From a virus (Duplodnaviria; Heunggongvirae; Uroviricota; Caudoviricetes): a DNA stretch of 15,832 bases. A model generated the notes under the pieces. The model was not told the DNA's origin. It worked only from the letters and a program-made list of their open reading frames with translations, and did not search any database. Both the position numbers and the translations under genes were made by a program. Position 1 is the stretch's first letter, and each line of letters begins with the position of its first letter. Shown here one piece after another: positions 10,078-10,303 of the stretch. The stretch lies in IMG/VR virus record IMGVR_UViG_2675903609_000009, one strand, 5' to 3'.

Positions 10078-10303
10078 TGTCTACCTTATCTACCTTAGTG
10101 GCCCTCATGCCAGTAATGGCGCTGCTTTCAGCGGGGTAGAGTGCTTTTATCCACTATCTACCCCGTGTCTACCTCCCTGTCTGATTCAGGTAAAATCAGG
10201 TAGAGAGGGTAGATAGTGGGTAGACAGTAAAAAAAGGCTATCTACCTAACTTAATGCACTGAATTAAATGTATTTTTCTTTACTCAGGTAGACAGGGTAG
10301 ACA
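10078..10303. repeat. Iteron array, putative origin of replication: at least 11 copies of an 8-bp iteron (consensus about TRTCTACC) in both orientations, with an AT-rich spacer
   Basis: TGTCTACC/TATCTACC at 10078, 10087, 10155, 10166, 10239; inverse GGTAGA-type copies at 10135, 10199, 10208, 10219, 10287, 10296; AT-rich stretch 10251..10284; immediately 3' of the primase gene. Confidence 0.75.

Follow-up and report, generated by a model that had tools for sequence, protein, structure and literature searches.

The stretch of DNA that was analysed (15,832 nucleotides; hereafter, the window) spans phoQ (1-1461) to the integrase gene int (14603-15832, minus strand), and all genes of the island that it carries are on the minus strand. 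The gene order from the integrase is a gene for an AlpA-like regulator (14040-14228, minus strand), a DUF4222 gene, pri-rep (10318-12066, minus strand), an array of short repeats (10078-10303), a small gene and an ssb-like gene, and then the genes for the capsid, the prohead protease, the portal, the head-closure and adaptor proteins, HNH and TerL. The small gene (9751..10029, minus strand; 92 aa, phrog_1231) has the same direction as pri-rep; the ssb-like gene (9272-9754) is partly N-masked, and ssb is annotated at the same position in relatives. An integrase, an AlpA-like regulator, a unidirectional operon and packaging/capsid genes were found, with no tail or lysis genes, as in a phage-inducible chromosomal island (PICI), and the gene set is that of a capsid-forming PICI (bioRxiv 10.1101/2022.09.08.507074). 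Note that runs of N at 4541-4671, 5635-5706 and 9328-9450 break the terS/HNH region, the head-closure gene region and the ssb-like gene, and that ORF calls in these places are unreliable. A known RNA was rejected as a candidate (no Rfam family at threshold anywhere in the window).

Layout and conservation of the repeat array

The array lies inside the 288-bp gap between the stop codon of pri-rep and the next gene, and its first repeat (hereafter, iteron) is 14 bp past the stop codon. The 8-mer GGTAGAYA had nine matches in the 15.8-kb window, all of them inside 10078-10303, when 0.40 was expected; as none of 200 dinucleotide-preserving shuffles of the window reached nine, a chance origin of the repeats was ruled out. 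The 6-bp core GGTAGA occurred 13 times in the window (3.5 expected), 11 of these between 10080 and 10301, and the only two cores outside the array are isolated, at 488 (inside phoQ) and at 15078 (inside int). Two copies in the array hold the core only, GGTAGAGA (10199) and GGTAGAGT (10135), and the iteron consensus including flanks is RGGTAGAYAG. A reading of the DNA made without database searches (the sequence-only reading) had counted at least eleven copies of an 8-bp motif within 226 bp; this count was borne out as nine 8-mers plus two core variants, enriched over the shuffles, and the ends that it gave for the array, 10078 and 10303, are exactly those of the first and last 8-mers.

Read from pri-rep, the iterons are GGTAGACA at 10296..10303 (+) and at 10287..10294 (+), both with a core that is invariant in eight alleles; GGTAGATA at 10239..10246 (-), which is inverted relative to this pair across an AT-rich spacer; GGTAGACA at 10219..10226 (+); GGTAGATA at 10208..10215 (+); the variant GGTAGAGA at 10199..10206 (+); GGTAGACA at 10166..10173 (-); GGTAGATA at 10155..10162 (-); the variant GGTAGAGT at 10135..10142 (+); GGTAGATA at 10087..10094 (-); and GGTAGACA at 10078..10085 (-). 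On the plus strand the tally is five TCTACC and six GGTAGA, and the order of orientations is - - + - - + + + - + +. The sequence-only reading, with five copies one way and then six the other, was therefore right in the counts but not in the order, because the orientations interleave. Its AT-rich stretch at 10251-10284 is real (21% GC versus 50% in the window), but it lies between copies 9 and 10 and not between clusters; since the orientations are interleaved, this stretch falls inside the module next to the initiator gene.

The start-to-start spacing of the 11 iterons (9, 46, 22, 11, 31, 9, 11, 22, 46 and 9 bp) is nearly palindromic and thus defines two inverted modules, only one of which has an AT-rich spacer. 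The initiator-proximal module (10199..10303) consists of two iterons, a 40-bp AT-rich spacer (10247..10286; 23% GC), one inverted iteron and three further iterons. The distal module (10078..10173) is an inverted copy of the proximal one with one iteron fewer (spacing of 11, 22, 46 and 9, the mirror of the other) and with a GC-rich spacer (10095..10134; 57% GC). Between the modules is a central spacer (10174..10198), which gives the 31-bp start-to-start gap. The AT-rich spacer, taken as 10251-10284 or as 10247-10286, is among the least stable 1% of the 30-mers of the window, a property that it shares with other sites, and 10247-10286 is likely to be the DNA-unwinding site. In PICI origins, the sets of iterons were reported to flank an AT-rich region as a possible melting site (PMC6092414), and such flanking was found here, with two iterons on one side of the spacer and the inverted iteron and further iterons on the other.

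Conservation was examined with eight E. coli/Shigella alleles at 72-99% identity. Within the array, 54 of 66 core columns were invariant versus 38 of 162 non-core columns (Fisher p 3e-16); as judged from this alignment, the iteron sites are under purifying selection. GGTAGA was the commonest 6-mer in each of the seven divergent alleles (9-11 copies), with positions and orientations kept, and in divergent E. coli alleles the cores stay in place as the spacers drift. Of the spacers, the GC-rich one had 20 invariant columns of 40, the AT-rich one 13 of 40 and the remaining ones 0-3 (3 of 25 in the central spacer). The GC-rich spacer of the distal module is thus the most conserved of the spacers, with a conserved block that reads TGAAA.C.GCG.CATTACTG.C.TG on the rep strand, in alleles that elsewhere have 72-78% identity; a role as a host-factor or priming signal would be conjecture. 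In the 5' leader of the following gene (approximately 10030-10077; AAAACTTTTTAAACGAGGGGG…ATG on the minus strand), which holds the ribosome-binding site, 30 of 48 columns were invariant.

Between pri-rep and the array, no terminator was found; because none separates pri-rep, the array and the next gene, transcription probably runs through the origin. A promoter was rejected as a candidate: the one weak match (10289-10318, plus strand) is directed into pri-rep in antisense, and such matches are no more numerous than chance would give. Similarly rejected was a DnaA box, TTATCCACT at 10147-10155 (8 of 9 matches), the sole site of this kind, which is at chance level and absent from the other alleles.

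Matches to the 288-bp region, sharing 72% to 99% identity with it, were present in 564 of 5,426 complete E. coli genomes, and the region is unannotated in every RefSeq record inspected among the matches listed. A search for a phage or plasmid origin gave no matches in 50,697 phage records and matches in only three plasmid records, and this candidate was rejected.

The initiator Pri-Rep and the tested origin of EcCICFT073

The product of pri-rep (10318..12066, minus strand; 582 aa) is an initiator/SF3 helicase with Pfam D5_N, a DUF5906 helicase core and a Pox_D5 C-terminal domain (TIGR01613). Residues 486-577 (10336..10611, minus strand; Pfam Pox_D5) match 1KA8 (phmmer, E 7e-7), a structure of the domain with which P4 alpha binds its origin and which has a winged-helix fold, and the helicase core matches the structure of SaPI5 PriRep (7OLA; E 5e-15). 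Against residues 326-762 of P4 alpha, the identity is 40% over 438 aa, and the Walker A motif (GDGGSGKST) and the RRR arginine finger are intact. The best 120 protein matches to Pri-Rep are all near-identical proteins of Shigella and E. coli, and the identical Pri-Rep is recorded mainly from Shigella flexneri among the matches listed.

The alignment to alpha begins at alpha residue 326, and the primase part of alpha is absent. For residues 1-150 of Pri-Rep, no significant match was obtained with Pfam or with phmmer against PDB, and neither a search of PDB with a five-sequence profile nor an hhalign comparison with residues 1-330 of P4 alpha gave anything significant. A single-sequence AlphaFold model of the N-terminus, of low confidence (pLDDT 59.6), has a generic beta-alpha-beta fold, and Foldseek with this low-confidence model returned nothing below E 0.01. 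The N-terminal part of 140 aa stands in place of the P4 alpha primase domain of approximately 325 aa and has no detectable relative of known function; residues 1-140 (11647-12066) are also the most variable part of the protein, with 38-100% identity between alleles versus 92-99% in the helicase. The database name "primase" rests on a model covering the helicase part. As far as these searches reach, the annotation "DNA primase" is without a backing primase domain, and the helicase and origin-binding parts alone are recognisable; the sequence-only reading, too, had spoken of a primase gene. Without a recognisable primase domain an extra priming function would be needed.

A counterpart of this replication module has been examined in the laboratory. 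A plasmid with temperature-sensitive replication was maintained at 44 C when it carried the pri-ori fragment of EcCICFT073 (Fillol-Salom et al. 2018, ISME J, PMC6092414); deletion of pri abolished plasmid maintenance, deletion of ori gave significantly fewer colonies, so that maintenance was reduced but not abolished, and the authors noted segregation defects in this assay (PMC6092414). The origin region of EcCICFT073 and that of the window have a mean column identity of 97% over 343 columns, with 11 of 11 iterons at the same positions and in the same orientations, and the Pri-Rep proteins are 90% identical, one residue being different in the C-terminal domain. We mapped the published primers of PMC6092414 onto the CFT073 sequence (L003). 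The common forward primer is L003:2197-2217; the delta-ori reverse primer is L003:3979-3999, ending 4 bp past the stop codon; and the pri-ori reverse primer is L003:4286-4306, one base off the printed text. The deleted "ori" is accordingly L003:4000-4306 and contains the whole array, and the fragment from 2197 to 4306, which sufficed for maintenance, holds only pri-rep and the origin region. Because of the 97% identity, and because the primers put the array inside the deleted segment, the cloning test proposed in the sequence-only reading has in effect already been done on a near-identical copy.

Like EcCICFT073, the island of the window is at the chromosomal site next to phoQ and has a 288-bp gap after pri-rep. 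Unlike in EcCICFT073, the replication module is here joined to a full capsid/packaging set (TerL, portal, protease, capsid, HNH and head-tail connector proteins), whereas the CFT073 island has a small set of the capsid/decoration/terS type; the iteron flanks and spacers differ at a few single positions. That the array exists, where it lies and how nearly it equals the origin of EcCICFT073 can be read from the DNA itself, and for EcCICFT073 the need for pri-rep and for this region in cis/trans in plasmid maintenance has been shown experimentally (PMC6092414). With an array directly 3' of pri-rep, homology to a tested origin and an island of the PICI type around it, we consider it very probable that a capsid-forming-type PICI uses the array as its vegetative replication origin. 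The assignment to an iteron-type origin served by the adjacent initiator, as put forward in the sequence-only reading, is also supported by the experiments on the 97%-identical region and by the match of the C-terminal domain to 1KA8. Note that the type of origin, its position and its dependence on Pri-Rep were already published in 2018 for the 97%-identical copy, and the present identification is a correct rediscovery; the correspondence with P4 ori (see below), the conserved GC-rich spacer and the initiator without a recognisable primase domain are minor additions.

Relation to P4, SaPI and plasmid origins, and rival explanations

In the record of P4 (NC_001609), "ori type 1 repeats" of 8 bp are annotated both in ori (9310-9413) and directly 3' of alpha, in crr. 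The crr element of P4 is an enhancer required in cis, and replication starts at ori, 4.5 kb away. The P4 octamer (TGTTCACC / GGTGAACA) is not found here in its exact form, but GGTGAACA of P4 and GGTAGACA of the window are alike at 6 of 8 positions. The proximal module aligns co-linearly with P4 ori: when read from the initiator side, P4 ori is < < 44 > 21 < 11 < 10 < (spacing of 10, 44, 21, 11 and 10; gap of 22% GC), and the module of the window, read from the rep stop codon, is < < 46 > 22 < 11 < 9 < (spacing of 9, 46, 22, 11 and 9; gap of 23% GC). The six-iteron module (two sites, gap, one inverted site and three sites) thus has the same orientations as P4 ori, a spacing within 2 bp of it and an AT-rich gap of 37-40 bp, and the resemblance to P4-type iterons proposed from the motif extends to the order and spacing of the sites. 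In having repeats directly 3' of the initiator gene, the array is also like P4 crr. However, ori and crr are 4.5 kb apart in P4, and here the two modules lie head to head in one 226-bp block, so that there is a single cluster and not the bipartite cis requirement of P4. Moreover, P4 has a terminator between alpha and crr, and none was found at the equivalent place here. Of the initiators, alpha has an N-terminal zinc-finger/TOPRIM primase of approximately 325 aa and Pri-Rep an unrelated N-terminus of 140 aa; the helicase and winged-helix origin-binding domains are common to both and the primase domain is not.

Two distant relatives of Pri-Rep were found in species-representative genomes. That of Serratia aquatilis (53% identity) shares the short N-terminus of Pri-Rep, and that of Morganella morganii (52% identity) is a full-length alpha-like protein with zinc finger and TOPRIM. 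Each is followed directly past the stop codon by 11 repeats in the same layout, with GTGAACA and ATGAACA, respectively, as the repeat sequence; in Serratia, the spacing is 10, 44, 20, 11 and 10 and the gap has 14% GC, and across P4 ori, Serratia and Morganella the GC content at the equivalent AT-rich position is 11-22%. An initiator and its iterons are expected to behave in this way, the repeats varying together with the protein within a constant layout.

SaPI origins lie immediately 3' of rep, with iterons that flank an AT-rich centre and are bound by the C-terminal winged-helix domain of Rep (PMC9371898). Their iterons are short, number 6-12 and are placed to either side of this centre in opposed orientation, and the array resembles them in this layout as well as in its SF3 helicase with a C-terminal winged-helix domain as the putative reader of the iterons (PMC9371898); the likeness is functional only, since neither the iterons nor the proteins are close in sequence. 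The SaPI iterons have a length of 5-6 bp and are unrelated in sequence to those of the window, the similarity of the proteins is confined to the helicase core, and the host and the island lineage differ. Classical plasmid iteron origins (Rep_3/RepA, pi or TrfA type) also have repeated initiator sites beside an AT-rich region. However, they use direct repeats of 17-22 bp, DnaA boxes and a non-helicase initiator that recruits DnaB, whereas the window has sites of 8-9 bp in both orientations and an initiator that is itself an SF3 helicase; the array is therefore not of the Rep_3 type.

The P4 comparison also bears on the possibility that the array is a crr-like auxiliary element, which recruits or concentrates the initiator for replication that starts elsewhere. 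Such a role would agree with P4, in which the element just past the alpha stop codon is crr and not ori, and with the GC-rich spacer of the distal module, which is unlikely to melt. It is nevertheless very unlikely, since there is no second cluster in the window from which replication might start (the two remaining cores are isolated), since the EcCICFT073 fragment with pri-rep and this region was enough for maintenance, and since the proximal module follows the plan of P4 ori, including the AT-rich spacer, and not that of crr. That the repeats are instead operators of a regulator which controls the downstream ssb/packaging operon, with no role in replication, is likewise very unlikely, although short inverted repeats are typical of operators and the array is directly upstream of the conserved leader and ribosome-binding site of the next gene. 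Deletion of the homologous region impaired the Pri-Rep-dependent maintenance of a plasmid (PMC6092414), distant relatives combine a diverged initiator with other repeats in an unchanged layout, the plan is that of the ori that alpha is annotated to use, and no promoter-like site was found on the minus strand of the array region.

A different question is whether the island copy is decaying and no longer replicates, in which case the origin would be a non-functional relic. The major capsid gene (7755-8960, minus strand) has an in-frame stop at 8085-8087 (…RKNAV*VVNST…), whereas in E. coli the homologous gene at this site is uninterrupted (385 aa; L013:7829-8986), and the Shigella flexneri from which the identical Pri-Rep mostly comes, among the matches listed, is a pseudogene-rich lineage. 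The copy in the window is probably unable to build its own capsids, and with a nonsense codon in the capsid gene, the element may have lost the ability to complete its life cycle, whatever the state of the origin. However, pri-rep is a full-length ORF with intact helicase motifs, and a comparison with the functional origin of EcCICFT073 shows 11 of 11 iterons intact, so that we regard a dead origin as highly improbable; in addition, such decay would bear on the present activity of the feature and not on its identity. We thus retain the reading as the replication origin of the PICI.

Proposed mechanism and ancestry of the replication module

Upon induction, the island would excise, and the unidirectional operon would yield Pri-Rep, whose C-terminal winged-helix domain would recognise the iterons of approximately 9 bp (RGGTAGAYAG). 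Several protomers of Pri-Rep may then come together at the iterons to either side of the 40-bp AT-rich spacer; the spacer would melt, the helicase would load itself, probably as two hexamers, and the host polymerase would then copy the circle. The reading of the iterons by the C-terminal domain, the melting at the AT-rich spacer and the self-loading are proposed here because P4 alpha and the Rep proteins of SaPIs are homologous.

In PMC6092414, the organisation of the PICI origin was described as common to no other known replicon, and P4 and PICIs were considered to have evolved independently. Because the layouts match, the comparison made here suggests a common ancestry of the replication modules of P4 and PICIs; the P4 link of PICI replicons would then be closer than the literature states, which is a modest refinement and not a new kind of element. 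A more specific scenario, which we put forward tentatively and consider less probable than not, is that the origin of enterobacterial PICIs and the P4 replicon are direct homologues and that, in the PICI origin, an ori-type module and an inverted crr-like partner became fused in a 226-bp block, the alpha-like protein lost its primase, and the GC-rich spacer (10095-10134) serves as a host-factor or priming signal replacing it. If true, the fused ori and crr would revise the view of a unique plan and of independent evolution.

For annotation, the identification is useful, as the region is unannotated in the RefSeq records inspected, has matches in 564 of 5,426 complete E. coli genomes and has a neighbour named "primase" of which only the helicase and origin-binding parts are recognisable. 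It also provides a rule for finding such origins: in the 300 bp past a P4-alpha-like helicase gene, two sites, a gap of approximately 40 bp, one inverted site and three sites.

On its 3' side the iteron varies between groups of alleles, being GGTAGAYAG, GGTAGAYAA or GGTAGARGG (L006-L009 versus the window, CFT073 and L004). The flanks YAG, YAA and RGG pair with NVNDFGKAM, SVNEFGKAM and NVA[ED]FSKAM of the origin-binding domain, which differ at three residues, perfectly in the eight alleles, and the flank groups could be specificity variants of the origin-binding domain. This co-variation was not counted as evidence, since the domain is encoded less than 300 bp from the origin and physical linkage would be a sufficient explanation.

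Islands at this phoQ-side site combine replication and packaging modules in different ways, by shuffling. In E. coli strain 4, the packaging module is 98% identical to that of the window, but a RepA-family helicase (L013:11087-12132) takes the place of Pri-Rep, and CFT073 (L003) and Z1323HEC0423 (L001) have Pri-Rep and the origin as in the window with the small capsid-redirecting gene set of a classical PICI.
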